The notes beneath the pieces were generated by a model. It was not told where the DNA came from and made no database searches. It worked only from the letters and a program-made list of their open reading frames with translations. DNA of 64,000 bases, taken from IMG/VR virus record IMGVR_UViG_3300025738_000001, one strand, 5' to 3'. The stretch's first letter is position 1; each line of letters starts with the position of its first letter. The stretch is from a virus. A program made the position numbers and the translations under genes. Below, piece by piece: positions 29,237 through 56,117 of this stretch.

Positions 29237-29249
29237 CCAGCGGAGCTGG
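29237..29249 (-). promoter_or_regulatory. N4-type promoter-like hairpin CCAGC-GGA-GCTGG
   Basis: Perfect 5-bp stem and 3-nt purine loop on the + (template) strand, in a 54-nt gap 33 nt right of the ATPase ATG. Confidence 0.45.
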
Positions 29250-29258
29250 CCCCATTTA

Positions 29259-31439
29259 TTAAATATCACGCTTCTTGATTGCTTTACTAGCAGACACAAT
29301 GATAGTAGCCATTACTTCAGCTTCTGGCATTGGTGTAGGTAGCTTCTTATTCAAGTCCAATACGGTTTCAGTAACTTCATTAACATTCTTGCCTGCATCC
29401 ACTAACATTAGTGCGTACTTAACAAGTTGGTTACTGCGATTGCCTGTACCAGTACTGCCCATGAACCAGCGTTCCATATTATTAAGACTAGCTTGGTCAA
29501 CGACTGTTTGCTGACGCGCTTCGTTCTTGGTAGTTTTAGGAATGAATGGTAGGGCATCAAATAGCATGCCTTCGTTATCGAACTGTTCACCATCGTTAGT
29601 CAGCCATTTCTTGCAGCGTTGGAACGTGCCTTCATCAATTGCAAACGGTAGTCCTTGCGAGATGTTAACCATAAACTCATGGTAGTCTTCTTCGCTTAGA
29701 TTAAGCTGGTAGTTCAATGGGATTACTACACGGAATCTATCTCCATGTTGAATCTGCGTTTCCGCATCAAAGGTTTGGTGGCGTTTCGTAGTGTAGATGT
29801 GGTAAGTGTAGTCGGCCATCAGTAATTGAACTGTAGCTATATCCACACCTTCATCTACATCCAGGACAAGTAGATTGAACCCTGGGATTACGTTTGCACC
29901 GCAGCGATGGTCATCAAGGAAGTGATGAGTAGTCCAGTGCATATCGTCTAACTTGGTTAATTCCCCTATGTCAGAGAACGCGCACTCTTCATCTAAGCCA
30001 TCAGAGTAGTTATACGCTGCATGGTCAGAGTAGGATAATGTTATGTTATCCAAGTCGGTCTCTCCAAGTTCATCACCTGATAGGAACTCAATCCCATCTA
30101 CATAAGACTTTTTCACAACCTTGTTGTTACGATAGCCCCAAGCGATTGCTAGTGTCAGCATATCTGCTTTAAAGCCTGCGTTACCTTTATAGAACGGTAG
30201 TTGCTCAGTAAGGTCAGCATGAGTAACCTCACGGTCGATAGAGCACACATACTTAGCGAGCTTGACATAGTTCTGCTCTCTGGTAAGAATGGCGTTAAGC
30301 GCCGCTCCAGAGTCCTCAGATAGTCTAACCGCTGCGTAGAAATGGTCTGCTGTGACTTCATGGCTCCCATCCATGAAAGCGTAAGCACCTGCTAACTTCA
30401 GGGATTTGAAATAACGGTGAGTTATCTCTGCCTGTTGTATCTGCTGGTGGTCGGCCATCTTGCGAGCACGGTCCACACAATAGTCCTGATACTCCATTAC
30501 TAGAATACTGGTTTCTTTAGTCATGAGTAACACACGACCATAGTTATCAATATCTGCTAGTTCACCGAAGTCATCAGAGATGCTTTGGAAGAATGCATCA
30601 GTGTTACCATTGGTTAACAAGTCATAGCGTTCTTCAGGAGTAAGTACACTTTGAGAAGGCATGTCTTTAGCAAAGCCAAAGAAGCTACGTCGACCGTAAC
30701 CGGTATCTAACATAGAGACGAGTTCTTGCTCCACTTTGCCACCGTCAAGTAGCTTAGCAGGCGTTCCGTACATCAGACAGTTAGTAGGGGTACGACCTTC
30801 GATTTCCTCACTACGAGTATTCTCGGCAGTGTTCTTAGTAATCTTTTGCTTAATTTTACCAACATCGTACAGTTCCAGCATTGTCTTAAATGCATCTGCA
30901 CCCTCAACGAGATTCGAACCAATCTCATCAATTTCCATGTTGATTGAACCGCAACCCGCCATTAGAAACTTATGGCGTACTTGTTTAATCGCTGCTGGAG
31001 TTGCGCTATCAAATGAGAACACTTGATGGCCCTGAGTGTTGTACTCTTTCTTGATGGCAGCTAGTGCCTCATCTTCAGTACAGTCATTCTGGATTGCACG
31101 TTTAACAGCTAACTTGGCTAATTCTTTCTCAGCAATTAAGCCGAAAGTTTCACCCATGAATCGTTCACGAAATTGATTAATAACGTGGTCTTCAATAATG
31201 TTAGTTGAGTGACCTTTACCATAACCTGATGATGCTAAGTTAATAGCGTACAAGTTAACCGGTAGTACTCCACGGTCATGAGTCTTAACATTAATACGCA
31301 TACACCCTGCCATCTTACATAAGAAGTAGGCTACTGAGATACGGAAGAAGTCACGATTATCGTTCTGAGTCTTTTGGCAAAGAACGTCTACTATTTCTTC
31401 AGAAGTAGGGTTATACGGAACTGTTTTTAAGTCCTTCAT
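29259..31439 (-). CDS. DNA primase / helicase-like replication protein (position of N4 gp43)
   Basis: 726 aa. P-loop-like SGYGKGHS in the N-terminal half. C-terminal primase-polymerase-like LLVLDVDEG...RFRVVIPLN and a PriCT-like tail (NQLVKYALMLVDAGKN). Confidence 0.65.
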   Translation of the reverse strand: MKDLKTVPYNPTSEEIVDVLCQKTQNDNRDFFRISVAYFLCKMAGCMRINVKTHDRGVLPVNLYAINLASSGYGKGHSTNIIEDHVINQFRERFMGETFGLIAEKELAKLAVKRAIQNDCTEDEALAAIKKEYNTQGHQVFSFDSATPAAIKQVRHKFLMAGCGSINMEIDEIGSNLVEGADAFKTMLELYDVGKIKQKITKNTAENTRSEEIEGRTPTNCLMYGTPAKLLDGGKVEQELVSMLDTGYGRRSFFGFAKDMPSQSVLTPEERYDLLTNGNTDAFFQSISDDFGELADIDNYGRVLLMTKETSILVMEYQDYCVDRARKMADHQQIQQAEITHRYFKSLKLAGAYAFMDGSHEVTADHFYAAVRLSEDSGAALNAILTREQNYVKLAKYVCSIDREVTHADLTEQLPFYKGNAGFKADMLTLAIAWGYRNNKVVKKSYVDGIEFLSGDELGETDLDNITLSYSDHAAYNYSDGLDEECAFSDIGELTKLDDMHWTTHHFLDDHRCGANVIPGFNLLVLDVDEGVDIATVQLLMADYTYHIYTTKRHQTFDAETQIQHGDRFRVVIPLNYQLNLSEEDYHEFMVNISQGLPFAIDEGTFQRCKKWLTNDGEQFDNEGMLFDALPFIPKTTKNEARQQTVVDQASLNNMERWFMGSTGTGNRSNQLVKYALMLVDAGKNVNEVTETVLDLNKKLPTPMPEAEVMATIIVSASKAIKKRDI

Positions 31440-31476
31440 AAGTTACCTTTAATTATAGTAGATGTTCTCTACTGGG

Positions 31477-32487
31477 TTAAACGAGGGTGACAAGAATGCC
31501 CTCTTCAATTAATCGGTCACGCTGACCACAGATTGACGCTGCTTTACAATAGTTACAGGCCTTGGCTTCACCGAACACGGTTTTGACCACACCTACACCA
31601 CCATTTTTAGCTTTGATTTGATTGGCTTCTAACAGGGTTTCACAGTTTTTGGTACTACGGCCACCTTTAGCTGCTGTCGCAGGGTTCTTGTAATACTTGT
31701 AGACTGGGTCTTTCTGCCATAGCTCATCAGGGGTGCAATCCGGTAAGAGTTCATCAGGTACGTCTTCAAGTTCTTTAACTTGTTTGAGACGAGCTTTCAC
31801 GTAGTTATCGGTTTGCTTAATTGAGTATAGTTCAATTGGGTATTCCAACACACGGGACTGTGGATACTTCTCATCAGTCTTGGCGCGTAATGCCATCCAA
31901 TCTGTGAAGATGTATTGAATCGCCATGAAGTCTTCAGTAATGATGTCGGGATTAAGCCAACGGTATAAACTACCCTGGAGCTTAAACTTGTCATCATTGG
32001 TTTTGTTGACGTAAGTGAATGTGCTGGTTGATTTAAAGTCTTCAACTCGGCCGCCCATTACAAAGTCATACTTACCTGAGACTGTTGTAGTACCTACTTT
32101 CTTATGGGCACGCTGCTCCATATAGACTGGGATAGCTGAAGGGCTCTCCTCCATATATTCCTTAGTAGGGTTAATGACAATACGGTCACGAACTCGCTTA
32201 ACAATACCCAATTCTTTCAAGGTATCCTTTAGCTTCACGGAGTTCCATGCGTTCTCAATAGAGTCATGGAAAGCTGTACCCATTGAGGATGCAACCATAC
32301 CAATGATTTCCACTGGGTCAGGTTCACCAGAGGCCACTACCCGCTTAGCTAAAACTATCTCACGGACAGGTTTAATTAAGGATGTGACACTAATGGTTTC
32401 AGTATCTGGATTATGGTCATACTCATCATGAGCTAACCAGACCGCCACTGATAGCGGTACATTTGCTATATTGCTATAACGCGACAT
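31477..32487 (-). CDS. PD-(D/E)XK exonuclease with C-terminal Cys cluster (Cas4/RecB-like)
   Basis: GTAFHDSIE, YDFVMGGRVEDFKST (D...E/D-x-K) and C-terminal CNYCKAASICGQ. Confidence 0.65.
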   Translation of the reverse strand: MSRYSNIANVPLSVAVWLAHDEYDHNPDTETISVTSLIKPVREIVLAKRVVASGEPDPVEIIGMVASSMGTAFHDSIENAWNSVKLKDTLKELGIVKRVRDRIVINPTKEYMEESPSAIPVYMEQRAHKKVGTTTVSGKYDFVMGGRVEDFKSTSTFTYVNKTNDDKFKLQGSLYRWLNPDIITEDFMAIQYIFTDWMALRAKTDEKYPQSRVLEYPIELYSIKQTDNYVKARLKQVKELEDVPDELLPDCTPDELWQKDPVYKYYKNPATAAKGGRSTKNCETLLEANQIKAKNGGVGVVKTVFGEAKACNYCKAASICGQRDRLIEEGILVTLV

Positions 32488-32517
32488 TGCTATTCCTTAT
32501 TATGAGAATTCGGACAA

Positions 32518-32530
32518 GCAACGAAGTTGC
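32518..32530 (-). promoter_or_regulatory. N4-type promoter-like hairpin GCAAC-GAA-GTTGC
   Basis: Perfect 5-bp stem and GAA loop on the + strand, in a 55-nt gap 31 nt right of the nuclease ATG. Confidence 0.45.
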
Positions 32531-32542
32531 CTGCCACTAACA

Positions 32543-33724
32543 TTATCTTACTTGCTTGATGTTGATTGTATGGCGTTCAATCTCGCCAAATGATTTGTGT
32601 ACGACTATTGCTTTGCTGTCTTGACGGGCTCGGTAACCCCCCCACGTCGCATAAGCATCTTTAGCCGCAAGAGTTCGAAATGATTCCACGTCACAACCGG
32701 AGTACTCTTTTTTAGTGTCATGGTGAATGTGTCCTGTTAACCATGTACGGAACTCGGTCTTACCCCACAACTCTGCTTGGTCAGTAGCCATTACCATAGG
32801 TAAACGGTCTGCCTTACAAGTATGGCCGTGATGTACACCGAACATAGATGAACCCCAGTTAAAGTAGTGGAACGGAGTTGGATTAGCATTGATGGTTACA
32901 CGCGGCTCATTCTCATATATGTTCTGTAAACATACTGAGAGGAACAGGGAACCGGTATCATCATGATTACCAACGGCGTTGATTACTTCTACTTCTGCAT
33001 GGTGGGCCAATGCGCTGTCAATCATCTGACGGATAATCTTAACACCGACTCGAATCATCTTAGCGTAACGCCCATCCATATCAAGTGAGTGCCCACTACG
33101 GGAAGTAGTACCTTCCATATTATCTGCATGGAAGAAGTCACCAAGGTTCACAATTACGGCCTTAGCCGAAGGAGGCGCAGCCTTAACGAGACGGTGGAAC
33201 ACCGCGCACATTTTACTCTCAGCCACCTTCAAGTCCCAGTTTTCCCCGGTCTCTTCCATCCATGCCATCATTCCGATATGAGGGTCACCTAACGGGTAGA
33301 TGGTCATCAAGTCTTCATCAATGAATATGGGAGTCGGTACTGAGTTAATGGCCGGCATGTCATCACAGAAAGCTTCAATAGCTTCTATCATGAGTTCCTT
33401 CTGGCGCTCTGCATCAATAGCGGTTTTAACCCACTGGATTTTCTTTTCCCCGTCTTTGCCATAGAGTGTTGACACACCTTTGACTAAGAACCCATCGGGA
33501 CAGGTCTTCACCATGTCGTGGTCAGGGGAATAGCCAGCGCGTGTAGCTGCAGTTTCTATGCGAATCATAGCATTACGTATGGCAGAGGTTGTAGCCCCTA
33601 CAGCGCGTGCTGCTGCCGCACAATTACCTTGTGATGCTTGATATGCTGCTAGGTAATCTTCTTGTAGTTCGCTGGTGCAGTACTGACTGTACTGCGGGTC
33701 TAGGTAGTCTAATAAATTACTCAT
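32543..33724 (-). CDS. Metallophosphoesterase (SbcD/Mre11-like) with N-terminal HTH-like region
   Basis: Calcineurin-like motifs GDPHIG, NLGDFFHADN, GNHDD, GHIHHD. Confidence 0.8.
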   Translation of the reverse strand: MSNLLDYLDPQYSQYCTSELQEDYLAAYQASQGNCAAAARAVGATTSAIRNAMIRIETAATRAGYSPDHDMVKTCPDGFLVKGVSTLYGKDGEKKIQWVKTAIDAERQKELMIEAIEAFCDDMPAINSVPTPIFIDEDLMTIYPLGDPHIGMMAWMEETGENWDLKVAESKMCAVFHRLVKAAPPSAKAVIVNLGDFFHADNMEGTTSRSGHSLDMDGRYAKMIRVGVKIIRQMIDSALAHHAEVEVINAVGNHDDTGSLFLSVCLQNIYENEPRVTINANPTPFHYFNWGSSMFGVHHGHTCKADRLPMVMATDQAELWGKTEFRTWLTGHIHHDTKKEYSGCDVESFRTLAAKDAYATWGGYRARQDSKAIVVHKSFGEIERHTINIKQVR

Positions 33725-33800
33725 ATACTTCCTACTTGGTGGTGAAAGGCTAGCCCCTGAATGAGGCTTGCCGAGTGATGAGGGTGCTAGGCCTCACCGC

Positions 33801-33974
33801 CTAGTAACAGTAGTCCCACAAATCCTTCGCCTCTTCAAATCCAAGGTTAAAGATTGTCAGGGCTAACATAACTAATAGTATGGTAACCGTTAACGGTAAT
33901 ATCCATAGACAGCGCCAAACCATAGTGAATGGCTGTTCTTTAAATGCTATTTTTAATTTATCAATAAATGTCAT
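33801..33974 (-). CDS. Small membrane protein (57 aa), below the ORF-track cutoff
   Basis: Hand translation MTFIDKLKIAFKEQPFTMVWRCLWILPLTVTILLVMLALTIFNLGFEEAKDLWDYCY. ATGA overlap with the DNA polymerase stop. Confidence 0.5.
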   Translation of the reverse strand: MTFIDKLKIAFKEQPFTMVWRCLWILPLTVTILLVMLALTIFNLGFEEAKDLWDYCY

Positions 33975-36616
33975 GCTGCTTCCATATATTCATCATAGCC
34001 TGCGATACACTTATCATAGATAGTGTCGATATCATCGGCTGGTTTAAGGGTGATAGCGTTACCCCAGTGCGGTGCAAATACATCTAACTCCGCGCTTAGT
34101 TTAACTTTATCGTGTTTAAGTTCTTCCAGTTCTTGCCAAGCCATACACTCAGTAAGGTTCTGGTTAACCCACTGCGTTACTTCCATTCTGTCTACCCACA
34201 TTAAGTAGATAGCATCATGAATCTGTGCAGCAATCTTAACTTCATTAACGTAATCAGAAGCACGGACTCTACGGAAGAACTCATTAGCCGCTCTACAGTT
34301 AAGTAGGCAGTAACTTTGTCCTAATGCATTACCAGCAGTTCTGGATTCAGACTGGGCTTCATATGGAGTACTGCTGGTTCCAAGACGAGTCTTAGAAAGT
34401 ATAGGAGTACGTACACGAAGGCCAAAGGCAACTGTGATATAACCATCTACACAAGCCTGCTTAATCTTCTCACGTTTCCACTTATCTGAATGCGCATACA
34501 GACGGTGGTAGTTGTCTTCAATGCCACGGGCAACCATCTCTGACATACCCAAGGTACCCATTAGGCCATGATATGTTCCATCGTAGGTCAATAGGAATGT
34601 AGGTACTTTAGATAGTGCGCGTAAATCAGGGTACAGTTTCTTAATGGAGTTAATACTTTCTACTGTGTTAACAATGTCAGGCATTTGTGAGCCAAAGTAA
34701 CTATGTGCCCTGAGGCAATGCCCGTCATAACCATCAAGATAAACCTTAAGTTTATTCGGGTCACGGGTAGTTAACGCTGAAATGTAATCTTCTAATGATG
34801 CAAAGTCAGCACCGCCAAACAACCAGCCATCAGGAGCACTGAAGCATGATTTGATTAGTTTGCCTATCCATCCCGAAGCGGGAAGATTTTGCATATTAGG
34901 ACCACTGCTAGAAAGACGGCCACTGACAGTCCCACCAAGATTAAAGTTCCCGAAGAGGTAATGACGTCCATCTCCACCATCCTGTGCCAGCAAGAATGCC
35001 GGTATAAATGTGTTAAGTATCTTCTCGACTTTACTGTGGGCCATGATAGCTTCCAGTATTACCTTATGCGCAGGATTCTTCACATGGTTCAGCAGTTTCT
35101 TAATAGTACCGGCTCCGCAGGCAGGCTGCTTAGTTGCGGTCTTATCAATTACTGGTAGTCCCATGAAGTCATAGAAGAGGGATTGTAGTTGCTTAGGTGA
35201 GCCTGGATTGAATCTACACTTCTCAGCCGCTTCAGCATAAGTACGCTTCTTCGTCTTAAGTTGCTCATTATCCAATGCAATACGTTCAAGTATAGACTCA
35301 TGAATAAAGCGCTGTAGCTCAGGTTCTGCTGCCATGTCTGAACTGGCTTCATCTGAGATATCCTGGAGTATCGTCTGCACTTCCAGTACCCGTGGCATAT
35401 CAATAGGCAAACCAGTCAATTGCATCTCAATGATGGTCGTGATGGATTCTTTGAATATACCGGTATAGACGTGCTCTTGGTCATCGGCCACCATGATTGG
35501 ATAGTTCTTCTCACGGGTGAAGTGAGTAGTAAGGCAATCCACTAGGTTGTACTCCAGTAGCTGGCCTGGCTTCATCTTACGGATATCTTTGATATCTTCT
35601 TCAGCATAGTTACCAGCAAACATCTGGCCCTGCTCTTTGAGCGATAAGTGATTACCGGCACAAGTGTTAGTAGCAAGATACGATATTAGTTTAGTACAGT
35701 CGAAGTTCTTGAGCATGTGGTGCATGCCCTTAACCAGACCGGGTCTATCCAAGATGTGAGTCATCCATAAGTTAGCGACCGCTATCGTTGCATCAAATGC
35801 TACGTTGTGCCAAATAACCTTACCTTCATACTTCTCAAAGAAGTCACGGATTAACTTACGTACTGCTTTATTTCTACGCTGCTTACCGTAGTTGGTGCCT
35901 ATTTCATCACCCTTATCATTAAAGATAGGAAGCGGTTGTTCGTATTCTTTATAGTCACATAAGAATGCGCCACCGTTATGCTTATCCCAAGCGAACCCAA
36001 CCGTTGCAATACCTGATTCATAATGCTTCAAGCTAAACGCTTCAAAGTCAGAAGTGATTTCAGGGTACTGGTGTAGTGAGTCCAAGAACGCTGCTATTTC
36101 CGTAAGCGTTTTAGGGTATTGAGCACTCTCAATGATATCTTCGCCAGGGGGTTTGTAGAAGCCTCCCACATACGAGTAAAGCGTTTGTAACGAATGTTCC
36201 AGTTTCGGGCCATTGGCGGGATTATGAAACACGCTGCCATAGTTAGTACCAAGCACAATATTAATGTGTTCAAAACCAGCCCAAGCGCATGGTAGTACAT
36301 AACCATAGTGAGCTTCCGCCTGTTTAAGGCCTGTGAGTGATTTAAAATAAGTGGCATCAGCACAGTAAATTACCTGTGTTCCTAGACTATCAAGTGAACG
36401 CAACAGTACTGGCACATAGTCTTTAACTAGTTTCGCAGGTGCTTTGTTGTTCTTGTAGTCTAGGCTGAATGCCACTATCTCGTTTTTGTCCACCCCAAGT
36501 GTTATCAAGGGGTCAACGTAGTGCTTAAGCAAGTCGTCCTTTACCAAGGCCTTCTCTTTTATGACAATTGCTATGTTGCATTTGCCTGCACTATTGTTAA
36601 AGGTTACATGTCTCAT
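33971..36616 (-). CDS. DNA polymerase, family A
   Basis: Motif A GADFASLEDY, motif B RALSKVPTFLLTYDG, motif C AQIHDAIYL, exo motif WHNVAFD. Start set at Met19 (ATGA overlap with the upstream stop; RBS aggag). Confidence 0.9.
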   Translation of the reverse strand: MRHVTFNNSAGKCNIAIVIKEKALVKDDLLKHYVDPLITLGVDKNEIVAFSLDYKNNKAPAKLVKDYVPVLLRSLDSLGTQVIYCADATYFKSLTGLKQAEAHYGYVLPCAWAGFEHINIVLGTNYGSVFHNPANGPKLEHSLQTLYSYVGGFYKPPGEDIIESAQYPKTLTEIAAFLDSLHQYPEITSDFEAFSLKHYESGIATVGFAWDKHNGGAFLCDYKEYEQPLPIFNDKGDEIGTNYGKQRRNKAVRKLIRDFFEKYEGKVIWHNVAFDATIAVANLWMTHILDRPGLVKGMHHMLKNFDCTKLISYLATNTCAGNHLSLKEQGQMFAGNYAEEDIKDIRKMKPGQLLEYNLVDCLTTHFTREKNYPIMVADDQEHVYTGIFKESITTIIEMQLTGLPIDMPRVLEVQTILQDISDEASSDMAAEPELQRFIHESILERIALDNEQLKTKKRTYAEAAEKCRFNPGSPKQLQSLFYDFMGLPVIDKTATKQPACGAGTIKKLLNHVKNPAHKVILEAIMAHSKVEKILNTFIPAFLLAQDGGDGRHYLFGNFNLGGTVSGRLSSSGPNMQNLPASGWIGKLIKSCFSAPDGWLFGGADFASLEDYISALTTRDPNKLKVYLDGYDGHCLRAHSYFGSQMPDIVNTVESINSIKKLYPDLRALSKVPTFLLTYDGTYHGLMGTLGMSEMVARGIEDNYHRLYAHSDKWKREKIKQACVDGYITVAFGLRVRTPILSKTRLGTSSTPYEAQSESRTAGNALGQSYCLLNCRAANEFFRRVRASDYVNEVKIAAQIHDAIYLMWVDRMEVTQWVNQNLTECMAWQELEELKHDKVKLSAELDVFAPHWGNAITLKPADDIDTIYDKCIAGYDEYMEAA

Positions 36617-48457: not shown

Positions 48458-48463
48458 ATTGTT

Positions 48464-48575
48464 TGGTAGTCCTTAACGGGGACTAGTCGGGAGGTACGTA
48501 TTGCCTACGGGTCTTAGCTTCTTTACGTCTAGGTTCGAATGTTGCCATCTACTTCGTGCCGCGTCTGCTAGTTAC
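48464..48575 (-). ncRNA. Spacer RNA ending in a minihelix + ACCA
   Basis: 3' end AGTCC-CCGTTAA-GGACT-ACCA (48464-48484), followed by AACAAU and tRNA-Met. Confidence 0.3.
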
Positions 48576-48648
48576 TGGGGGATAGGGTGGAATCGAACCA
48601 CCTTAGTCGACTTCTGCCCAAACTACGATGTTCTCGCGTTGCTATCCC
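48576..48648 (-). ncRNA. Degenerate tRNA-like RNA (73 nt)
   Basis: Acceptor GGGATAG/CTATCCC and canonical T-arm GGTGG-TTCGATT-CCACC. Position 8 is C, the D-stem is 3 bp, and the anticodon region is a bulged 7-bp stem with loop GCAGAAG. No readable anticodon. Confidence 0.45.
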
Positions 48649-48750
48649 ATAATTAGTTCCCTTACATAACATATGAAGGGTAATATGGCCGTTCTTACAA
48701 TTGGTCTTACTCTGCCTTTATAAGAGCTAAAGGTAACCCATCCTGGAGGA

Positions 48751-48942
48751 TTAGATATGCAAGTAGATGCCAACACGGGCAAATAACATGCTAATTTTTG
48801 CACGACCTTTAAACTGAGCATCGGCCTTGTGCTTACGCAACATACGTTTAACCGCAGGGCTACGCTGTGATAATTCTTCAGGTGTTGAACGTACTTCATC
48901 AAAGCCTTCAACTGTTACTGCTTTATTTTTACGAAATTCCAT
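48751..48942 (-). CDS. Small basic protein (63 aa)
   Basis: ORF track; RBS gggagaag 4-5 nt before the ATG. Confidence 0.55.
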   Translation of the reverse strand: MEFRKNKAVTVEGFDEVRSTPEELSQRSPAVKRMLRKHKADAQFKGRAKISMLFARVGIYLHI

Positions 48943-49156
48943 TGTCTTCTCCCGGTATTGGACCGCTTAATAGTTCTACCAGTTTGGTAGCGCGTGTGAA
49001 TACTTCTACGATTTTTTTAGATTCAGGACTGCCTAATTCGGCCTCAGCTACAATGTCCTGATAACGGGCACGGAACAGTACGAACTTGCCTCCGCCATCA
49101 GCACCTGAGAATACATCAAGCATGATTTGGATGTCGTCATCTGTTACTTGGGCCAT
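48929..49156 (-). CDS. Hypothetical acidic protein (75 aa)
   Basis: ORF track; start overlaps the ligase stop by 13 nt. Confidence 0.55.
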   Translation of the reverse strand: MAQVTDDDIQIMLDVFSGADGGGKFVLFRARYQDIVAEAELGSPESKKIVEVFTRATKLVELLSGPIPGEDNGIS

Positions 49157-50538
49157 ACACCCTCCGGTACAGTTAAACCAAAGTCATCTGCTATCTGCTT
49201 CCAATGACGGTCTTGGCTTTCACGCCATTGCACAACTTCACCAGTACAACCATCATGAGACAGTTGTAGTTCACGTAGCATTTTATAAGTGCAATCGTCA
49301 TACTCGATAGGTATATCCGATTTACGTAGAGCCTCTTGTACACCGTGATTAAACAGGCTGTTTCCTTCAATCTCGTCAGAGTACACGTCTTCTTTTATTA
49401 GTACGCCTACTGCACACATGCAGCCTTCATCATTACGATAGACACATTGGCCTTCATCGTCTTGAGCTGGTTTACCTTGCTTACGTAGATGGTTCACAAC
49501 TGTTGAGAATAATTCTTGTAATTCCATACTGACTCCTAAAAAGTCTGGTTCAGATTTGTCCTGACGCTCTTCCCGTACTTTGGGAATACGAATCAAGCCA
49601 TTCTTAGATGAGGGTTGTAAGCCTGCTACATGGTAAATCTTACCGATAGGGCTATCTGCTGTGTTATTAATACCTGCTTGGTATAGAGCCTCACATGAAT
49701 CATGAGTCCATCCTTTACCCGGCATGGCTTTCAGTTCTACACCGTTGGCGTATCGGAAGTATAGATTAGCAACTAAGCCCTTATACTTTCCAGTACCTTC
49801 TTCGAATGAGATACATTCCAAGTCAACATGCATACCCCGAACAATTTTCATTTGATGCCAATCTTTAGCGCCACATAGGTAACCTACGTTCTGCTTAAAC
49901 ACTGCACCTTCTTTACCTGCATTGATATGCTGTTCGGCAAAGTCTTGAGCTTCCACCCAGTTGTTGATAACAACATAAGGTAATATTTTAAAGTAAGCAC
50001 CATCGAACGCATCAATCAAGTCGGAATGACGGTCAGCATAATTAGTAGCACTGAATCCTTCTATGAACTCATTGACAGTAATAGCATCAAAGTGTGAGAT
50101 GTAGAGTCCTGCAGCAATAGCCGGTTGGTCACAAATGGAACCATCCTTCTTATCTACTTTGACTCGTAATGGTTTAACACGAAGAGGATTAATACAGCCA
50201 CCAAGTTCTTCAAGCGAACATTCATGAGTACTAAGTATCTCACCGAAGTATAAGCCTGGTTCTATTTGGGCCTGGAAGTAGCTCTCAGCTACATGATGCG
50301 TATTTGGCATAAGTTTACCGGTACGATTAAAGAGTCTCACCTCGCCATCGTCACGTACAGCCACGGCACAAAATACACCGTCTTCTTTTAACTGACCAAA
50401 CATAGGCCAAGATACTTTCTTGTGAAGAATACCTTGCTCTACTAATGGATTAACATCTTCGAAGTTCTTCACCAGTTGGTAAATCTTCTTCTCTTTACGA
50501 TGGTCTGCTGGCAAACCATAGAATTCAAATATATTCAT
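49144..50538 (-). CDS. ATP-dependent DNA ligase (T7-like core) with ~125-aa Cys-containing C-terminal extension
   Basis: Motif I LKEDG, motif IV KEGAVFK, motif V DWHQMKIV with T7-ligase-like spacing, and an OB-like LIRIPKVREER. Start set at Met26 (ATGA coupling to an upstream micro-ORF). Confidence 0.8.
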   Translation of the reverse strand: MNIFEFYGLPADHRKEKKIYQLVKNFEDVNPLVEQGILHKKVSWPMFGQLKEDGVFCAVAVRDDGEVRLFNRTGKLMPNTHHVAESYFQAQIEPGLYFGEILSTHECSLEELGGCINPLRVKPLRVKVDKKDGSICDQPAIAAGLYISHFDAITVNEFIEGFSATNYADRHSDLIDAFDGAYFKILPYVVINNWVEAQDFAEQHINAGKEGAVFKQNVGYLCGAKDWHQMKIVRGMHVDLECISFEEGTGKYKGLVANLYFRYANGVELKAMPGKGWTHDSCEALYQAGINNTADSPIGKIYHVAGLQPSSKNGLIRIPKVREERQDKSEPDFLGVSMELQELFSTVVNHLRKQGKPAQDDEGQCVYRNDEGCMCAVGVLIKEDVYSDEIEGNSLFNHGVQEALRKSDIPIEYDDCTYKMLRELQLSHDGCTGEVVQWRESQDRHWKQIADDFGLTVPEGVWPK

Positions 50539-50687
50539 CCTGCATATTCCTCGGGTGTGTTGCCGCCTTTGAAAGTTACCCATATGGTTACACAAGGTAG
50601 CGGATTGAAACAAATACGTTTGTTATAAGGTGACCAATGAACGCCTACCCAAAACGACGCTAATCGAAATATCATGCCTGCTTTCAT
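50535..50687 (-). CDS. Micro-ORF (50 aa), below the ORF-track cutoff
   Basis: Hand translation MKAGMIFRLASFWVGVHWSPYNKRICFNPLPCVTIWVTFKGGNTPEEYAG. RBS gaggtga 4 nt before the ATG; ATGA overlap with the ligase start. Confidence 0.55.
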   Translation of the reverse strand: MKAGMIFRLASFWVGVHWSPYNKRICFNPLPCVTIWVTFKGGNTPEEYAG

Positions 50688-51248
50688 AAATCACCTCATA
50701 GTTAATTGGTGACTCGTTTATACTCATAGAGCCATTGAGTTTGCCCACTTTCTTTATATAAGGCACCCGTGAGCTAGGGCTGTCAACTGTTTACGTCTAG
50801 TTCTGGGACGGGGTTTTGTCGCACTTCCAGCGGAATCCAATACTAATTAAGTTTCTGAGGATAACAGCAGCAATACTACGGTTTTTGTCATCGGAGAAGT
50901 TCAAAACCTGTTGAAAAATCGCCCTCAATAAAACCACTAGCGCCATTGGACTTTGCTTAGGTATCCAAAGCTTCACATGGACTAAGCTATCCTGATAGCG
51001 ATACTCGCCAGTGCTTATGCTGGCTTTCTGAACTAATGGGCTTATTGAGTTACCTGGTGACGGGGGTAAGACGGCTGCGTAGATTCATACAGCGTAACAT
51101 TGAAGTAGCTACTCTTTGCGGAGGCATACACACTAGCCCCACTTAACTCATTACCACTCACATCGTTGGTGAGCTGCTTGTATACAGCTTCAAGTACTAG
51201 GTTTTTAGAGAGGTCTGCTTTGCCTCTTATTAGGACGCTGTAAGTGAA

Positions 51249-51500
51249 CTAATCTGGTACTTCAACGACATTACCTGTGACTAAGTCATTAGGTTCTGCA
51301 ACCATCCAGCCTGAGCCGTCTAATGCAGTACTGCCGTTGTAGGTACACTCTTCTGACATGGCGTTTTTGCAACTAACGTCTGCACACAAGAATGAATTAT
51401 CTTTGTTATCAAATACTATGTTGTAGGGAAGCTCTGCGCCCTCTACGAACTTGTAGCGCTTTCCGACTACGAATGTTTGGGATATCGACTTCATCGTCAT
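51249..51500 (-). CDS. Hypothetical protein (83 aa)
   Basis: ORF track; overlaps the upstream ORF by 92 nt. Confidence 0.5.
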   Translation of the reverse strand: MTMKSISQTFVVGKRYKFVEGAELPYNIVFDNKDNSFLCADVSCKNAMSEECTYNGSTALDGSGWMVAEPNDLVTGNVVEVPD

Positions 51501-51966
51501 ACTCTTCTTCCTCTAAGGCTTCAGCCTGTAGTTTACGGAGTTCATCAAACTTCAAGGTAGGTAATGCAGCCTCAACCTCTTCAGTATCTCTTGGTTTAGT
51601 TAACCCACGAAGCTGTTTCTCGTAAGCTTGAGCAAGCATAACCGCTTCCATAACCCAACCGGTAAGGTAAGCAAAATGCTCATTACCTGTGCGTTCTGAG
51701 AGCACTAGGCCCACGTTGTCAGCGATGATGTCACAAGCATGAAAGACTTCATGTGTCATATCAGGAATACTACATAAGCCATCTTCGTCCATTTCTACCC
51801 ATAGGGTGATGAACGGTGACTTACCGTTATAATGTACACAACCACCTGCGCCGTCTGGTAATTTTAATCCAGTGGCTTTCTCGAATGCGCCATGACTAAA
51901 GACTATTAGCATCTCTTGTCGGTACATATCTACGTAGCATTTATGCACTGTATTTTTAAAGTTCAT
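51409..51966 (-). CDS. Putative zinc metallopeptidase (HExxH)
   Basis: MTHEVFHACD motif; acidic tail EEEEYDDEVD. The 3' end is uncertain because of the 92-nt overlap. Confidence 0.55.
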   Translation of the reverse strand: MNFKNTVHKCYVDMYRQEMLIVFSHGAFEKATGLKLPDGAGGCVHYNGKSPFITLWVEMDEDGLCSIPDMTHEVFHACDIIADNVGLVLSERTGNEHFAYLTGWVMEAVMLAQAYEKQLRGLTKPRDTEEVEAALPTLKFDELRKLQAEALEEEEYDDEVDIPNIRSRKALQVRRGRRASLQHSI

Positions 51967-52063
51967 GATGCCTCCTTACGGGTGATTGAGTGAATTGGTG
52001 CCCAGCGTTCCAACTTTTCAGCGTGGTTGGGGAACTAGATTATGACGCAACTCGGCATTGTTA

Positions 52064-52279
52064 GGGACGGCCAGGGGAATCGAACCCCTGTTAGAGACTA
52101 GGACATCAGTCACATGCCGTTAAGGTTAATTAGGCCTATGTGGATAGTTGCAACTACACACTAATCATCTGTTGGGGAATTAAACCCCAATGCTAGTTTC
52201 CTTTGCACCAAGCACCGACATTGTTCGGATTACGGGAAAGCCTACGATAGTAGCGCGCTCTATAAAGTAGCGCCGTCCC
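52064..52279 (-). ncRNA. 216-nt tRNA-like RNA: acceptor stem + T-arm closing a ~140-nt structured insert
   Basis: 8-bp perfect terminal pairing GGGACGGC/GCCGTCCC. T-arm AGGGG-TTCGATT-CCCCT next to the 3' strand. Internal T-arm-like GGGG-TTTAATT-CCCC at 52174-52188. 8 nt downstream of tRNA-Ser. Confidence 0.5.
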
Positions 52280-52287
52280 ATAATTAG

Positions 52288-52376
52288 TGGCGGAGGTAGC
52301 AGGACTTGAACCTGCACACCCTTTCGAGTGAATGAATTAGCAATCCATGACGATACCAATTTCGCTTGATACCTCC
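52288..52376 (-). tRNA. tRNA-Ser (GCT), class II, CCA encoded
   Basis: Hand fold, 89 nt: acceptor GGAGGTA/TACCTCC, anticodon arm ATGGA-TTGCTAA-TTCAT, long variable arm CACTC-GAAA-GGGTG, T-arm GCAGG-TTCAAGT-CCTGC, GCCA. Confidence 0.9.
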
Positions 52377-52736
52377 TAAATTTGGTGAGAATTTACTATT
52401 TAAAGACCGCGATTATCTACTATAACGCTCTGAATCTGAGTGCATCTTCATCATGTATCATAGCGGACTATCCTTATCAGGACTCTCGAACATAGTCTGT
52501 TATACCTATTGAAGGGCTGCACTCTTGCCCCGCTTTAGCTACCTATTGAATTTGTCTTAGTTTTCCTAATCCAGCCCTGTGAAAGAGACTGGGCTATCTT
52601 CTCAGAGATAGTTTGAGAGGTTGCGCTCTCTTACACTTATTTTAAAGTGGTGTGTGACTCAAACCACTGTTACTCCAAGGGCCATCCGCCTACCGAAATA
52701 GGAACTTATGAATCTTACACGCGAGGAGCCAATTAA

Positions 52737-52749
52737 CCAACGAAGTTGG
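52737..52749 (-). promoter_or_regulatory. N4-type promoter-like hairpin CCAAC-GAA-GTTGG
   Basis: Perfect stem and GAA loop on the + strand, followed by CTA. Heads the 360-nt ORF-free leader of the tRNA-Ser array. Confidence 0.45.
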
Positions 52750-52842
52750 CTAAAACTGCCAGACCTTCACCGATACCCAAGCTGCTAATAAGCAACCTGC
52801 ATAGATACCGAAGATGGTTCCAATTTTCTTTAAACTATTCAT
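52750..52842 (-). CDS. Micro-ORF (30 aa hydrophobic peptide)
   Basis: Hand translation MNSLKKIGTIFGIYAGCLLAAWVSVKVWQF. TAATG overlap with the upstream stop. Confidence 0.35.
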   Translation of the reverse strand: MNSLKKIGTIFGIYAGCLLAAWVSVKVWQF

Positions 52843-53192
52843 TAGAATTTCCACTCATATGAAATGCCTACTTCTGTACTGCTTGCAGCTATCTTCCAAG
52901 CGGAATCAGCTAACAGTACGCCTATTGCACAACCGACTGCATCTGCAGCCAGGTCACGAGTATCAAAACCACCGTAAGATATCTCATCGTAAATTTCTTT
53001 ACCGATACCTACGGCCATACACTCTGCAGCAGTCTCCCAATGTGAGCGACCACTATAAGTGTTAATCATGTAGAAGAATGATGCAGCGCCAATAGATGCT
53101 TTAACGTGGAGCTGTTTATCTGGCTCACTAAGTAAGCCAGCACTAACGTACATTGATGAGAACATCAACATTACACCTATGACTAATCGCAT
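52842..53192 (-). CDS. Exported small protein (signal peptide, C-terminal aromatic W-K-F)
   Basis: MRLVIGVMLMFSSMYVSAG signal; DKQLH...GKEIYDE...FDTRDLAADAVG resembles periplasmic-lipoprotein DUF patterns (weak recall). Confidence 0.55.
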   Translation of the reverse strand: MRLVIGVMLMFSSMYVSAGLLSEPDKQLHVKASIGAASFFYMINTYSGRSHWETAAECMAVGIGKEIYDEISYGGFDTRDLAADAVGCAIGVLLADSAWKIAASSTEVGISYEWKF

Positions 53193-53635
53193 TAGAACTC
53201 CTGGGAATCAGGCTTTGCAGCACTGGTTAAAATTGTTGTAGTAAGTAGGCCAATCTCGTCTTTACCGAAAGTTTCTTCCATTTCGACGAGAAGCGCTTGT
53301 TGCTTTTTCTTGGCCTGCATTTTATTGACTTTGCCTAAGACGACTTTTTCCATCTCAACACAGTCGTTATAGTGAGCACGGTCAACCACTGAAACTATCC
53401 ATTTAATACGGAAGGCTGCTTCGTGGTCACATTCGATTGCAGGGGTAACTTCAAATACTTCTACGATTGCAACACCCGTTGGAGAGTCCACCACTACTTG
53501 CTGACCGACTTCTACATCAAGCAGAGTCTTGTACATGTATGGTTTACTTTTGTTGCCATCGTCGTTTGTGAAGCGAACAAGGATGAATTTAAAATCAGGA
53601 TTAGCGTTAGCTATTAGTAAGTTTGCATATGACAT
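53192..53635 (-). CDS. Hypothetical protein (147 aa)
   Basis: ORF track; overlap-coupled. Confidence 0.6.
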   Translation of the reverse strand: MSYANLLIANANPDFKFILVRFTNDDGNKSKPYMYKTLLDVEVGQQVVVDSPTGVAIVEVFEVTPAIECDHEAAFRIKWIVSVVDRAHYNDCVEMEKVVLGKVNKMQAKKKQQALLVEMEETFGKDEIGLLTTTILTSAAKPDSQEF

Positions 53636-54048
53636 TATTCGTGTACCCTCTTTCCAAGTAGGATGGTTGTAATCGCACGTTGACGATAGATGAATAACAG
53701 TGGGATTGTTGCTAACATAATTGCACCAAGAGCCATTAGCCCGTTACCTGCCAATAGGCATGCAAATAGTATAGGAGCACTAACCAACTGCCATGATGGA
53801 ACCATAGCTAAACCAGCCATACGATTAATAGATACTTTGAACTCAGCTACTGTGGATTCCTTTTTAAGTAAAATGATTTTACTATCATCAGCAATGGCTA
53901 AAGATGCTACCGCAGTGATGGCTATTAGCACACCTACGTAGATTTGCAAGCCAAGGATTGCATCAGGGTTAAGAGGTAAGCCAAGGTACATAGAGTACGC
54001 CAGGAACACTAGTACGCATAAGCGCACTATAAAAAATGCTATTCTCAT
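53635..54048 (-). CDS. Integral membrane protein (137 aa, ~4 TM)
   Basis: ORF track; four hydrophobic segments. Confidence 0.65.
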   Translation of the reverse strand: MRIAFFIVRLCVLVFLAYSMYLGLPLNPDAILGLQIYVGVLIAITAVASLAIADDSKIILLKKESTVAEFKVSINRMAGLAMVPSWQLVSAPILFACLLAGNGLMALGAIMLATIPLLFIYRQRAITTILLGKRVHE

Positions 54049-54070
54049 GTTATTACCTTCAGTTAGTTAG

Positions 54071-54137
54071 ATTAAAAGAGGTGGCCCCTGACTGTTAAAT
54101 TAATGCACATTAATGTATAACAATTCTAATGGGGCCA
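54071..54137 (-). terminator. Terminator-like structure closing RNA array 3
   Basis: 7-bp stem UGGCCCC/GGGGCCA (54131-54137 with 54082-54088) enclosing a nested hairpin, followed by CCUCUUUUAAU. The loop is long, so weak. Confidence 0.3.
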
Positions 54138-54205
54138 TAGTTCGACGTCCGACTCACTGTAACCGCCTTAATGGGGAGGATAAACGTGTGAGTCAGATAT
54201 TTGCA

Positions 54206-54266
54206 GTACCGCTCCCGATTCGAACGGGTGACTCTCCACTGGCTTGCGACCAAGTTAGAGCGGTAC
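54206..54266 (-). ncRNA. Truncated tRNA-like RNA (~61 nt, no D-arm)
   Basis: Perfect acceptor GTACCGC/GCGGTAC and T-arm ACCCG-TTCGAAT-CGGGA. Only one internal hairpin, with loop UCGCAAG (GCA as in tRNA-Cys, but C at position 33). Confidence 0.45.
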
Positions 54267-54272
54267 ATTGTT

Positions 54273-54434
54273 TGGGTGCCTTACGGAGGATTCGAACCTC
54301 TTCACAACCTACTTACCCCAATGCTCGTCGTCATGACTCAGACCAAAGGTGTATGTTTCAGAAGTGCCGGATTCCTTATACCACTGTCAACAAGGTAGGA
54401 GCTACCTACTTCTCTAGTGGGGCGGACGTAAGAC
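54273..54434 (-). ncRNA. ~160-nt tRNA-like RNA with large insert
   Basis: T-arm AGAGG-TTCGAAT-CCTCC then GTAAGGC-ACCCA. The only complementary 5' strand within reach is GTCTTAC at 54428-54434 (one G-U pair). Interior folds into a long irregular hairpin CCACU...AGUGG. Confidence 0.35.
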
Positions 54435-54653
54435 GAAATACTGAGCCGTGTTCTATCTTCTTGGGTACGGCAATGGCCCTCAATAAGCCACAGGACTTGT
54501 GTGCAACATTGTATAAAAAATCACACAAAGTGGTAGGCTGGATTCTTTGTAGGAATAACTCCCCGCGTTTAATGTATACAGTTCACGGGGTGCTAGGATA
54601 TTACAGAGGACTGATTACCTCACCGATATTCCACCTACGGAATTAGTTAATAC

Positions 54654-54748
54654 ACTTATAAGAGTGTTCGGCTACGATTACCAAACCATGAATATTGAAG
54701 CAGTCAGGGAACCACACCTTTTACTTCAATCCGAACACTCATATAAGT
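54654..54748 (-). other. 95-nt extended imperfect hairpin in the leader of RNA array 3
   Basis: 18-bp stem with one mismatch (acttataagagtgttcgg / ccgaacactcatataagt) plus an inner 7-bp stem attgaag/cttcaat. Confidence 0.5.
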
Positions 54749-54865
54749 ATATTGTTGAAAGATTCCCATACACAGTTATGAGGTAACACTGCAATCCTAT
54801 GTATGAGATTTAATGACTCTTTCCGCACCATTCTAACCTGACTGCAGTGAGCAATATACATATTA

Positions 54866-54878
54866 CAGCCGGAGGCTG
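54866..54878 (-). promoter_or_regulatory. N4-type promoter-like hairpin CAGCC-GGA-GGCTG
   Basis: Perfect stem and GGA loop on the + strand, abutting the stop of 54880..55503. Heads the 430-nt leader of RNA array 3. Confidence 0.4.
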
Positions 54879-54879
54879 C

Positions 54880-55503
54880 TTATGCTCTCTTCATCTGGAA
54901 GCGAGTTATGTTTAGTGCAGTATCAAAGTAGACTGCTATACCTGAGCAATAACCATCTTCATGGTACAACATTTTTAGTGCCTCTTTAGCAGCACGCTCT
55001 ACAAACTTGAAAGCGTTAGAGGATGTATAAGCACACCCTTTGAACTGTTTGGATTTACGTACATAGCCTAAGCAAAAGTGATGCATGGCAATACGTGCTT
55101 GTGATGGTTCAATACCATAGTCAATAAGGTGACGCATAATATTGGCATCAAGTTCATCTATATTAATGAGATGTTGTAAGGCTATCTTAGAGATGGGTTT
55201 GAGGTCACGGCAAACGTCCGCTGCTTGAGATAACAATTCGCTCCATAAGTCGAAGCCTTCATTGTTACGTACAGCCTGGATAGCTCCTATGGCCTGCATC
55301 TCGTCTTCATAGGTGATACCTACATTGGTTCGGTGTGCGATAGTATGCTCAACAACATCATGTGCAATGAGTACCGGTGTACGATTATCCTCACGTACAC
55401 AGTTGATGATTGAGCCAAGTGTACCAAAGCGGTCTTCGGATAGATTGCCGAAACGTACTTGCTCCCCGTAAGAGCAGTAGTGCAATACAAAACGACCTTT
55501 CAT
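54880..55503 (-). CDS. Hypothetical protein (207 aa)
   Basis: ORF track. Possible HD-like LIAHDVVEH, but unconvincing. Confidence 0.6.
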   Translation of the reverse strand: MKGRFVLHYCSYGEQVRFGNLSEDRFGTLGSIINCVREDNRTPVLIAHDVVEHTIAHRTNVGITYEDEMQAIGAIQAVRNNEGFDLWSELLSQAADVCRDLKPISKIALQHLINIDELDANIMRHLIDYGIEPSQARIAMHHFCLGYVRKSKQFKGCAYTSSNAFKFVERAAKEALKMLYHEDGYCSGIAVYFDTALNITRFQMKRA

Positions 55504-55851
55504 AATTAGTATATCCCCATTTCCAACTCTTGTGATATGTGGTGAGTATTGGTTATTTTGCTCGTATAAGGCATCGCCAAGAGCTTAGGCCACTATAGCC
55601 TTCAGTTGTTAATAGTCTATCTTATGCAGGGTGTTTCACCGGTTCATAGTAGACTCAGTAGATTCGCTTCTTCAGCGTTAGCGTTGAGCACAACGATTTT
55701 GGTACGTCTCGCACCAGTTCTTAATGCACTTACTACGGAGTGTAGCCCGTTACTCTAATGCATAAGCAGCCACCAGTTAGTTGTAGGAAGAAGTTACACC
55801 TTCTTCTATAGAAGATATGTTAGTTATTTACATACACCAATATGCACAATA

Positions 55852-55864
55852 CCAGCGGAGCTGG
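55852..55864 (-). promoter_or_regulatory. N4-type promoter-like hairpin CCAGC-GGA-GCTGG
   Basis: Identical 13-mer to the copy at 29237; followed by CTAC. Abuts the stop of a micro-ORF. Confidence 0.45.
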
Positions 55865-55999
55865 CTACTCGTCTATTTCATCTTCGATAACATCAATAAT
55901 ATCTGTAACATCGTTACGAATACTATCTACTGTCTGGTTACCAAGTTCTGTCCACTCTTCAATAAGCTGTCGAACTTCGTTATAAAAGTCACGTTCCAT
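55865..55999 (-). CDS. Micro-ORF (44 aa, acidic)
   Basis: Hand translation MERDFYNEVRQLIEEWTELGNQTVDSIRNDVTDIIDVIEDEIDE. RBS ggaga 7-8 nt before the ATG. The + ORF 55817..56020 is its antisense shadow. Confidence 0.45.
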   Translation of the reverse strand: MERDFYNEVRQLIEEWTELGNQTVDSIRNDVTDIIDVIEDEIDE

Positions 56000-56104
56000 A
56001 CACATTCTCCGGTAAGTTAGGATATAGCCTATCTATATCCCTAAAGTCCCTCTTTCCCTAATTTAGGTTCAAGGTTTGGTACTAAAAAGTACTATTGGGT
56101 GTGA

Positions 56105-56117
56105 CCAACGCAGTTGG
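56105..56117 (-). promoter_or_regulatory. Promoter-like hairpin variant CCAAC-GCA-GTTGG
   Basis: Same stem as 52737 and the same CTAC tail, but the central loop base is C. Confidence 0.35.

Follow-up and report, generated by a model that had tools for sequence, protein, structure and literature searches.

Dispersed template-strand hairpins as probable middle promoters in the genome of an uncultivated N4-like phage

Short hairpins are scattered between the leftward genes of an uncultivated N4-like (Schitoviridae) phage, and the question they raise is what they do and which of the RNA polymerases of the phage would read them. The DNA analyzed here, IMG/VR virus record IMGVR_UViG_3300025738_000001 (64,000 nucleotides in all, hereafter the window), represents most of this genome in an orientation reversed relative to that of N4. 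Its + strand encodes the late genes and the virion RNA polymerase (vRNAP; 16839..26234, 3131 amino acids (aa)), a gene whose homologues in the relatives L090 and L091 have vRNAP Pfam matches, and its − strand encodes the early and middle genes (26467..64000). The second polymerase, RNAPII, is encoded on the − strand by a small-subunit gene (N4 gp15-like, 58239..59192) and a large-subunit gene (N4 gp16-like, 56931..58124), both assigned with PHROG. An initial annotation, made from the sequence, had recorded seven hairpins in non-coding gaps and had taken them for dispersed promoters of the vRNAP, with RNAPII as a bracketed alternative. We find that the RNAPII genes (56931..59192) form the boundary separating two hairpin classes: class M, C-GNA-G triloop hairpins with a 5-bp stem, and class E, early-type hairpins with a 4-bp stem. 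The class M hairpins, of which eight are genuine, are most probably template-strand promoters of the middle transcription class and are most likely read by RNAPII, a reading to which the sequence evidence gives a probability of about 0.6.

A scan of both strands of the whole window for C-GNA-G triloops closed by Watson-Crick stems yielded ten hairpins with a stem of at least 5 bp on the + strand and none on the − strand. The distribution of + strand stem lengths is discontinuous, with 133 stems of 1 bp, 21 of 2 bp, six of 3 bp, a single one of 4 bp, ten of 5 bp, and none longer. Chance expectation, from 300 dinucleotide-preserving shuffles, is 0.68 ± 0.86 such hairpins with a maximum of 4. Eight of the ten copies are non-coding, though non-coding sequence makes up only 9.7% of the window in a greedy gene map (binomial P = 3e-7). 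The comparison of coding with non-coding density that the initial annotation had proposed thus reveals a strong enrichment in the gaps, and the shuffles and the coding/non-coding split together rule out a chance origin.

The seven hairpins recorded initially all lie where they had been placed, with perfect 5-bp stems and 3-nt loops, and an eighth genuine copy had been overlooked. From right to left, the template (+) strand reads CCAAC-GCA-GTTGG at 56105..56117, the first copy after the RNAPII operon; CCAGC-GGA-GCTGG at 55852..55864; CAGCC-GGA-GGCTG at 54866..54878; CCAAC-GAA-GTTGG at 52737..52749; CCGAC-GAA-GTCGG at 45337..45349; GCAAC-GAA-GTTGC at 32518..32530, in the gap between two exonuclease genes; CCAGC-GGA-GCTGG at 29237..29249, in the primase/Sak4 gap; and the additional copy, GCAAC-GGA-GTTGC at 6133..6145, which stands within the rightward late block. 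All eight are oriented for transcription of the − strand, and the candidate transcription start sites (TSSs) of the latter seven are 55845, 54859, 52730, 45330, 32511, 29230, and 6126, respectively. Every copy places the perfect stem and the 3-nt loop on the template strand, and in every copy the stem closes with C:G and the loop starts with G and ends with A. The central loop position (−11) is a purine in seven of the eight (C in 56105), as is position −8 (C in 54866). As noted initially, CTA follows the hairpin in the copies at 45337, 52737, 55852, and 56105.

The location of these hairpins relative to the RNAPII genes is what points to a middle class. All eight copies are downstream of the RNAPII genes, and none was found in the 12 kb that include and precede those genes (window coordinates 56.2–68.1 kb), a region for which the window was extended beyond its right end by 4.1 kb, to window coordinate 68124, with locus L001 (Ga0209396_1000197, JGI 3300025731, 77,868 bp). 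The related loci L005, L006, and L008 show the same arrangement, with no copies in the 10 kb upstream of the RNAPII genes and three, three, and six copies, respectively, downstream. Since the dispersed hairpins lie downstream of RNAPII and the early region has a distinct hairpin class of its own, the dispersed set is better read as a middle class, a type of element already described for phage LUZ7 (PMC9163698). The proposal that the vRNAP is the primary reader is therefore not supported as it stood, and the bracketed alternative, RNAPII, is the better one.

The hairpins of the early region form a family of five copies with a 4-bp GC-rich stem and the sense loop TAGC (GCTA on the template). Two are in the window, both GGGC-TAGC-GCCC in the sense (−) reading: one at 59913..59924, followed by TAGTAATGGCAAT, and one at 61625..61636, without the TAGTAATGG element. 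The other three, on the same strand, lie beyond the window at 65413-65424, 66823-66834, and 67415-67426 (L001 coordinates 2701, 1291, and 699). TAGTAAYGGYAAT, in the form (T/A)AGTAAYGGYAAT, follows three of the five copies, and two copies precede A-rich sequence instead. Of the three element-bearing copies, one each precedes the first gene, the second gene, and the block that contains RNAPII; the hairpin at 59913, which has a 95-aa gene and the RNAPII genes downstream of it, corresponds in position to N4 P3. Because these locations parallel those of N4 P1, P2, and P3, the class E hairpins are positional equivalents of the N4 vRNAP promoters and, judged by sequence and position, candidate early promoters of the vRNAP. 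The early region of L008 likewise contains class E hairpins that precede TAGTAATGG, there with the loop GTT, and related elements with GGCAAT are present in L005. The contrast that the initial annotation had drawn between promoters clustered in N4 and dispersed here is not upheld, as class E holds the P1–P3-like positions and shares TAATGGCAA with the early promoters of LUZ7.

In LUZ7, ONT-cappable-seq identified early hairpin promoters with a G start 13–14 nt from the hairpin center, the two strongest early TSSs being arranged in tandem, 33 nt apart, upstream of Drc, and four middle promoters with GC-rich hairpins (stem of at least 6 bp, loop of 3–4 nt) that precede a G start by about 15 bp (Putzeys et al. 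2022, PMC9163698). We located the tandem pair in the LUZ7 genome just before ORF14/Drc, at 3663 and 3695; the second hairpin reads CAGGC-TAC-GCCTG-TGTAATGGCAAC, and TAATGGCAA is common to it and to class E of the present phage. The gaps of the LUZ7 middle block contain exactly four GC-rich 6–7-bp hairpins with a TCC loop, at 8238, 9521, 35252, and 39354, all followed by T-N4-Y-G (four unspecified nucleotides between T and Y). The hairpin at 8238 directly follows the gene for the RNAPII large subunit and that at 39354 occupies the primase/Sak4 gap, and the same gaps are used here. If transcription is taken to start at the G that lies 7 nt beyond the stem, the distances published in PMC9163698 for both LUZ7 classes are reproduced.

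Class M thus resembles the LUZ7 middle hairpins in its template-strand location, in its 3-nt GGA-type loop, in lying downstream of the RNAPII genes and on the middle-gene strand, and in the T-N4-Y-G that follows the stem. The stems differ, being 6–7 bp and GC-rich in LUZ7 but exactly 5 bp here, often with A:T pairs, and one LUZ7 copy closes with T:A. In addition, LUZ7 encodes Drc and its TSSs have been mapped, whereas the present phage has no detectable Drc and is known from sequence alone. In the early regions, class E and the LUZ7 early promoters have in common the TAATGGCAA that follows the stem, the spacing of 11 nt between loop and GG, and a position upstream of early genes; they part in structure, LUZ7 having a 5-bp stem and a GTA triloop and class E a stem of 4 bp and a loop of 4 nt (GCTA on the template). 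Class M, unlike the LUZ7 early promoters, lacks the GGCAAT element. The hairpins described here are of a kind already known from N4 (early) and from LUZ7 (early and middle), and what they add is a variant with an exact 5-bp GNA middle class and a tetraloop early class.

The sequence around the class M hairpins was defined from an alignment of 25 copies in the sense (leftward) orientation, eight from this phage and 17 from six related loci. The element, in this reading, has (T)AG ahead of a 5-bp stem that encloses C-TYC-G, and T-N4-Y-G behind it. The T straight after the stem and the pyrimidine at +6 are present in 25 of 25 copies, and the G at +7 is present in 20. The conserved G is 7 nt past the stem and 13 nt from the loop center, rather than 10–12 nt from it as the initial annotation had predicted for the 5′ ends; the corresponding distance is 14–15 nt for the longer 6–7-bp stems of LUZ7 (about 15 bp in the published description). 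The sequence of the stem itself varies freely, with changes on both sides in four of the five pairs. Among the copies with the flanking motif, 21 are perfectly Watson-Crick paired and none contains a G.U pair, as would be expected more of a hairpin formed in DNA than of one formed in RNA. With generic DNA folding, the minimum-energy structure includes the hairpin in seven of the eight copies from this phage.

The phage is distant from those deposited: its DNA polymerase is only about 51% identical to that of the nearest one, a megablast of 12 kb against INPHARED gave no nucleotide-level match, and a single-protein scan of IMG/VR for close relatives gave no match. Relatives were reached by protein searches with the RNAPII large subunit, the primase, and the portal protein, and by exact-protein contig look-ups. 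In these related metagenomic phages, hairpins stand in the same gaps, which answers the call of the initial annotation for a comparison of orthologous gaps. Neither this comparison nor that of coding density refutes its promoter reading. In the primase/Sak4 gap, the sense reading CCAGC-TCC-GCTGG of this phage is matched by CCACC-TCC-GGTGG at L090 12193 (86% primase identity), a compensatory change, and by CCAGC-TCC-GCTGG at L091 12211 (65% primase identity). In the exonuclease gap, GCAAC-TTC-GTTGC is found as an identical hairpin at L090 8909, with the loop TCC at L092 3319, and with a 4-bp stem at L091 8870. The first hairpin after RNAPII, CCAAC-TGC-GTTGG here, has the counterparts CTTGC-TAC-GCAAG at L005 11686 and CTTGC-TCC-GCAAG at L006 11600; these orthologs of the 56105 copy combine compensatory stem changes with a common downstream ACCCNAAAGTAC. 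The ortholog of the 55852 hairpin, at L005 11928, is followed by the same tattgtg. At the 6133 site, L094 (3371), L095 (3322), and L096 (3355) carry GCAAC-GAA-GTTGC in the template-strand reading, followed by T-N4-Y-G.

These features can be rationalized with a mechanism in which negatively supercoiled DNA, or DNA opened by SSB (a protein that binds single-stranded DNA), would allow the + strand to extrude a 5-bp mini-hairpin with a C:G closing pair and a GNA triloop containing a sheared G:A pair. A phage RNA polymerase of the single-subunit type would bind this hairpin and begin to transcribe leftward from the conserved G, 7 nt beyond the stem. The polymerase would most likely be the RNAPII heterodimer (56931..59192), presumably aided by some cofactor that binds single-stranded DNA (ssDNA). 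The hairpins would then divide the middle region into units for a micro-ORF (open reading frame), a 207-aa gene, an ORF-free stretch, a putative non-coding RNA (ncRNA) with tRNA-Ser, the replication operon, an exonuclease with the primase, and Sak4 with SSB, and a middle-type cassette within the late block would be hairpin-driven as well. Early transcription by the virion RNAP would use class E, at the genome end that enters first.

Several points weigh against this assignment to RNAPII and the middle class. The folding energies of the hairpins, computed with generic DNA parameters, are modest (−3.5 to −4.9 kcal/mol). Such parameters may underrate GNA triloops, which are unusually stable. The 100% pairing and the covariation in the 25-copy alignment are partly circular, the copies having been chosen for perfect stems, and for this reason the ortholog-by-ortholog comparisons given above were relied on instead. 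T-N4-Y-G also follows 22–30% of the hairpins upstream of RNAPII in other N4-like phages, and it was rejected as a class-specific marker on these grounds. The case that the four LUZ7 hairpins are the published middle promoters is strong but indirect, having been made from the verbal description and the count and not from coordinates. The published LUZ7 middle description, a GC-rich stem of at least 6 bp, does not fit class M, although the loop size does, and in form class M is nearer the early class of LUZ7 (4–5-bp stems) than the middle class. N4 RNAPII itself uses AT-rich, hairpin-free promoters (PMC4496689). Finally, the start site and timing of class M, the extrusion of the hairpin, and the identity of the polymerase are all deduced from the DNA sequence.

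The main competing explanation is that class M consists of dispersed vRNAP promoters, with injected or newly made vRNAP starting at every GNA hairpin and RNAPII using other, so far unrecognized promoters. We consider this unlikely. The N4 vRNAP promoter rules demand a 5–7-bp stem, a 3-nt loop, a C-G closing pair, and purines at −11 and −8 (PMC4496689, PMC3715699), and class M fits them almost perfectly in form, down to the C-G closing with a potential sheared G:A pair and the purines in seven of eight copies at each of the two positions, which is a further point against RNAPII as the reader. The two classes are also structurally close, since early-class hairpins of L005 are C-GAA-G triloops too, with 4-bp stems, and T-N4-Y-G follows hairpins on both sides of RNAPII in other N4-like phages. 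Against the vRNAP, however, in four related genomes no copy stands upstream of the RNAPII subunit genes, which the vRNAP must express, and a separate class occupies the P1/P2/P3-equivalent positions with an initiation sequence common to the mapped LUZ7 early promoters. One copy lies inside the late block, which would enter the cell last. In N4, moreover, vRNAP promoters have been argued to be confined to the first-injected end, as the few injected molecules cannot serve many promoters (PMC4496689).

The comparison with N4 itself illustrates the same division. The initial annotation had given AGC-GGA-GCT as the core of N4 P2, and this is correct (N4 P2 is AAGAAGC-GGA-GCTTCTT). In a scan of the N4 genome, the only template-strand GNA hairpins were P1 at 102 (before gp1), P2 at 573 (before gp2), and P3 at 4562 (before gp15); the N4 middle region, including the gaps orthologous to those that hold class M, has no such hairpins. 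Class M shares with P1–P3 the template-strand hairpin, the C:G closing pair, the G...A loop ends, the purines at −11 and −8, an AT-rich spacer, and a purine start, which for class M is a predicted one. It differs in location, since the three N4 promoters precede gp1, gp2, and gp15 at the end injected first and class M is found downstream of the RNAPII genes, and in the spacer: N4 has TT(T/A)T and then GG at 11 nt from the loop center, and class M has T-N4-Y-G with the G at 13 nt. With the middle promoters of N4 RNAPII (AT-rich, −7 to +2, dependent on gp1 and gp2), class M would share the genomic role, in which numerous sites over the left half of the genome give overlapping middle transcripts; unlike class M, none of those promoters has been described with a hairpin, and the present phage has no gp1 or gp2 homologues. 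The vRNAP of this phage is 22% identical to N4 mini-vRNAP over 388 aa (residues 332–702), and the residues W129, D901, and R904, which contact the promoter, fall outside the alignable part.

A further alternative is that the hairpins act on transcripts or on elongation, as terminators, pause sites, or RNA processing or stability hairpins at gene ends. Most copies do directly follow the stop codon of the upstream gene, and a template-strand hairpin could in principle block a polymerase on a single-stranded template. The initial annotation had described two copies as abutting a stop codon; this is true of 55852 (the TAG of a 44-aa ORF) and nearly so of 54866 (1 nt from the stop of 54880..55503), but the TAG beside the hairpin at 52737, like that at 56105, does not end the gene called upstream. 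None of the eight class M hairpins is followed by a U-tract (T-run in the DNA), and a terminator scan flags none of them, whereas the same scan finds strong intrinsic terminators nearby on the − strand. One of these, at 59552..59575, directly follows the 95-aa early gene (59581..59868), and the other, at 56234..56257 with a 10-bp stem and a T-run, marks the end of the RNAPII operon, some 115 nt ahead of the first class M hairpin. The copy at 6133 and its orthologs in L094, L095, and L096 have no leftward gene upstream that could be terminated. Terminator identity was rejected for the lack of T-runs and the context of 6133. For an RNA-level role in general, the absence of G.U pairs from the 21 copies, the conserved T at +1 and Y-G at +6/+7, which are expected for an initiation region, and the pyrimidine-rich sense loop (TYC), the stable GNA form being on the template DNA strand, make this alternative highly improbable. 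From the missing T-runs, the conserved downstream positions, and the 6133 copy without an upstream leftward gene, it is very probable that the class M hairpins have promoter function.

A role as DNA-level signals apart from transcription (primase or replication-initiation sites, recombination hotspots, or sites of ssDNA-binding proteins) would also fit the restriction to one strand and recalls the GNA mini-hairpins at some ssDNA phage origins, but it has very little probability, as every copy is 5′ of a leftward gene or leader (25–35 nt before the start codon in four), the late-block copy stands exactly at the sole leftward cassette and is kept in relatives despite differing cassette content, and the homologous LUZ7 elements fit the description of mapped TSSs.

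The units that the hairpins head, all on the − strand, are as follows. The distances from hairpin to next start that had been given initially are accurate: 33 nt from 29237 to the ATG at 29204, 31 nt from 32518 to the ATG at 32487, 25 nt from 45337 to the ORF start at 45312, 349 nt from 55852 to 55503, and 106 nt from 56105 to the micro-ORF ATG at 55999. The wider claim that N4-family template-strand hairpins of promoter-like form head leftward units, including replication genes and a tRNA/ncRNA leader, is likewise supported. PHROG matches in the window include a primase, a Sak4-like protein, two exonucleases, a Dda-like helicase, a ligase, an ATPase, an HNH protein, and both RNAPII subunits. 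The hairpin at 45337 heads a replication operon of about 12 kb that begins at 44974..45312 and comprises the ATPase, HNH, helicase, DNA polymerase, and exonuclease genes; 32518 heads an exonuclease and the primase; and 29237 heads Sak4, SSB, and two more genes. At the other end of the series, the 56105 hairpin precedes a leader of 106 nt and then a micro-ORF of 44 aa (55865..55999) with a stop codon that directly adjoins the following hairpin, and the 55852 hairpin precedes the 349-nt ORF-free leader (55504-55851) and the 207-aa gene 54880..55503. For the small genes downstream of the hairpins, Pfam gave no matches and PHROGs nothing informative.

The initial annotation had also placed RNA arrays behind the hairpins at 52737 and 54866, and this description is only partly borne out. 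After 52737, a non-coding leader of about 200 nt (52535-52730) is followed by a weak tRNA-Ser(GCT) at 52288..52376 (−; Rfam 33.8 bits, called by ARAGORN only at a relaxed threshold). The leader, which reads GCGTGTAAGATT...TGGTTTGAGTCAC...GATTAGGAAAA on the − strand, is ORF-free and conserved, being kept at L005 13162-13372 and L006 12794-12985; RNAalifold gave 34 pairs, 12 of them with compensatory changes, from an alignment of only three sequences. It is possibly a novel phage ncRNA that precedes the tRNA. Downstream of 54866, by contrast with what had been proposed, the ORF-free sense stretch of about 800 nt (54049..54866, −) contains T-arm-like strings only, GGTTCGAATCC near 54300 and GTTCGAATC near 54225, and neither ARAGORN nor Rfam calls a tRNA in it. 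A 177-aa ORF on the opposite strand (54113..54646), called by the Joint Genome Institute (JGI) within this stretch, has no family match. Rfam searches of the ORF-free leaders returned tRNAs only, with no match for either 52535-52730 or 55504-55851. Clear tRNA calls on the − strand are tRNA-Cys(GCA) at 47763-47837 and tRNA-Met(CAT) at 48382-48457.

In the 26-kb late block, the lone gap hairpin, at 6133, stands exactly at the only leftward cassette. This cassette (5641..6098, −) consists of two genes (73 aa and 60 aa), with its ATG at 6098, 35 nt from the hairpin, and it ends at a terminator-like inverted repeat (~5600-5635) that we read as a bidirectional terminator; neither gene has a family match. 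In every case the hairpin at this site stands at the head of a leftward cassette flanked by the lysis genes and the portal gene, and the content of the cassette differs among genomes: 74 + 59 aa, thymidylate synthase with 179 + 70 aa, or 95 aa. The cassettes span 5641-6145 in the window, 2813-3383 in L094, 1588-3334 in L095, and 3113-3367 in L096. The arrangement looks like a swappable slot for middle expression.

The remaining two of the ten + strand hairpins lie in coding sequence. One, TTATC-GCA-GATAA at 3046..3058, is inside and antisense to a late gene, lacks the downstream motif, and is probably a chance match. The other, GTAAC-GTA-GTTAC at 37965..37977 (−) within the helicase gene, is ambiguous: it is followed by tctaacg, and hence by T-N4-Y-G, and lies about 330 nt ahead of the next gene, but it is absent from relatives, not being kept in L090 or L091. 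It may be either an internal promoter or a chance match.

The wider distribution of the element was surveyed in 84 N4-like loci (80 IMG/VR loci and four of this clade) as C-GNA-G hairpins with a stem of at least 5 bp. On the template strand, 126 hairpins lie downstream and 114 upstream of the gene for the RNAPII large subunit, compared with 53 on the antisense strand for both sides together; GGA loops and stems of 6 bp are favored among the downstream copies. When the comparison is limited to loci that extend at least 3 kb to both sides of this gene, N4 and L083, which have gp1/gp2 homologues, have no downstream hairpins, and at least one is present in three of three Drc-carrying loci and in 54 of 66 others, in a cofactor comparison whose sample is small and not phylogenetically independent. 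By tblastn, this phage has no homologues of gp1, gp2, or Drc, and most metagenomic N4-like loci, like this phage, have neither a gp2 nor a Drc homologue. A class E hairpin on one side and a strong intrinsic terminator on the other enclose the 95-aa gene 59581..59868 (59552-59924 in all), a layout that resembles the highly expressed Drc unit of LUZ7. The 95-aa product was rejected as a Drc homologue, having no similarity to Drc and no Pfam match; it could be the RNAPII cofactor of this clade.

What follows for the family concerns how its second polymerase finds its promoters. The small split RNAPII of N4-like phages cannot locate promoters alone. To our knowledge, middle promoters of the hairpin type have so far been mapped in LUZ7 only. 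Hairpins homologous to these in the same gaps of a distant clade, together with the downstream-of-RNAPII enrichment in most of the 84 loci, suggest hairpin recognition as the common mode of middle transcription in the family, with N4 atypical. Tentatively, and with slightly less than even odds, the polymerases of this clade may have swapped hairpin types relative to N4, with RNAPII reading C-GNA-G and the vRNAP reading the GCTA tetraloop with GGCAAT; more broadly, hairpin promoters for RNAPII would then be the rule in Schitoviridae, and the AT-rich, gp1/gp2-dependent promoters of N4 the exception. For this uncultivated lineage the analysis provides a concrete map of predicted promoters, with eight middle-class and five early-class sites and starts predicted to the nucleotide. 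The rule of a C-GNA-G hairpin followed by T-N4-Y-G could improve the annotation of operons in Schitoviridae, and two short, distinguishable promoter classes for two small polymerases of the single-subunit type could serve as orthogonal expression parts.

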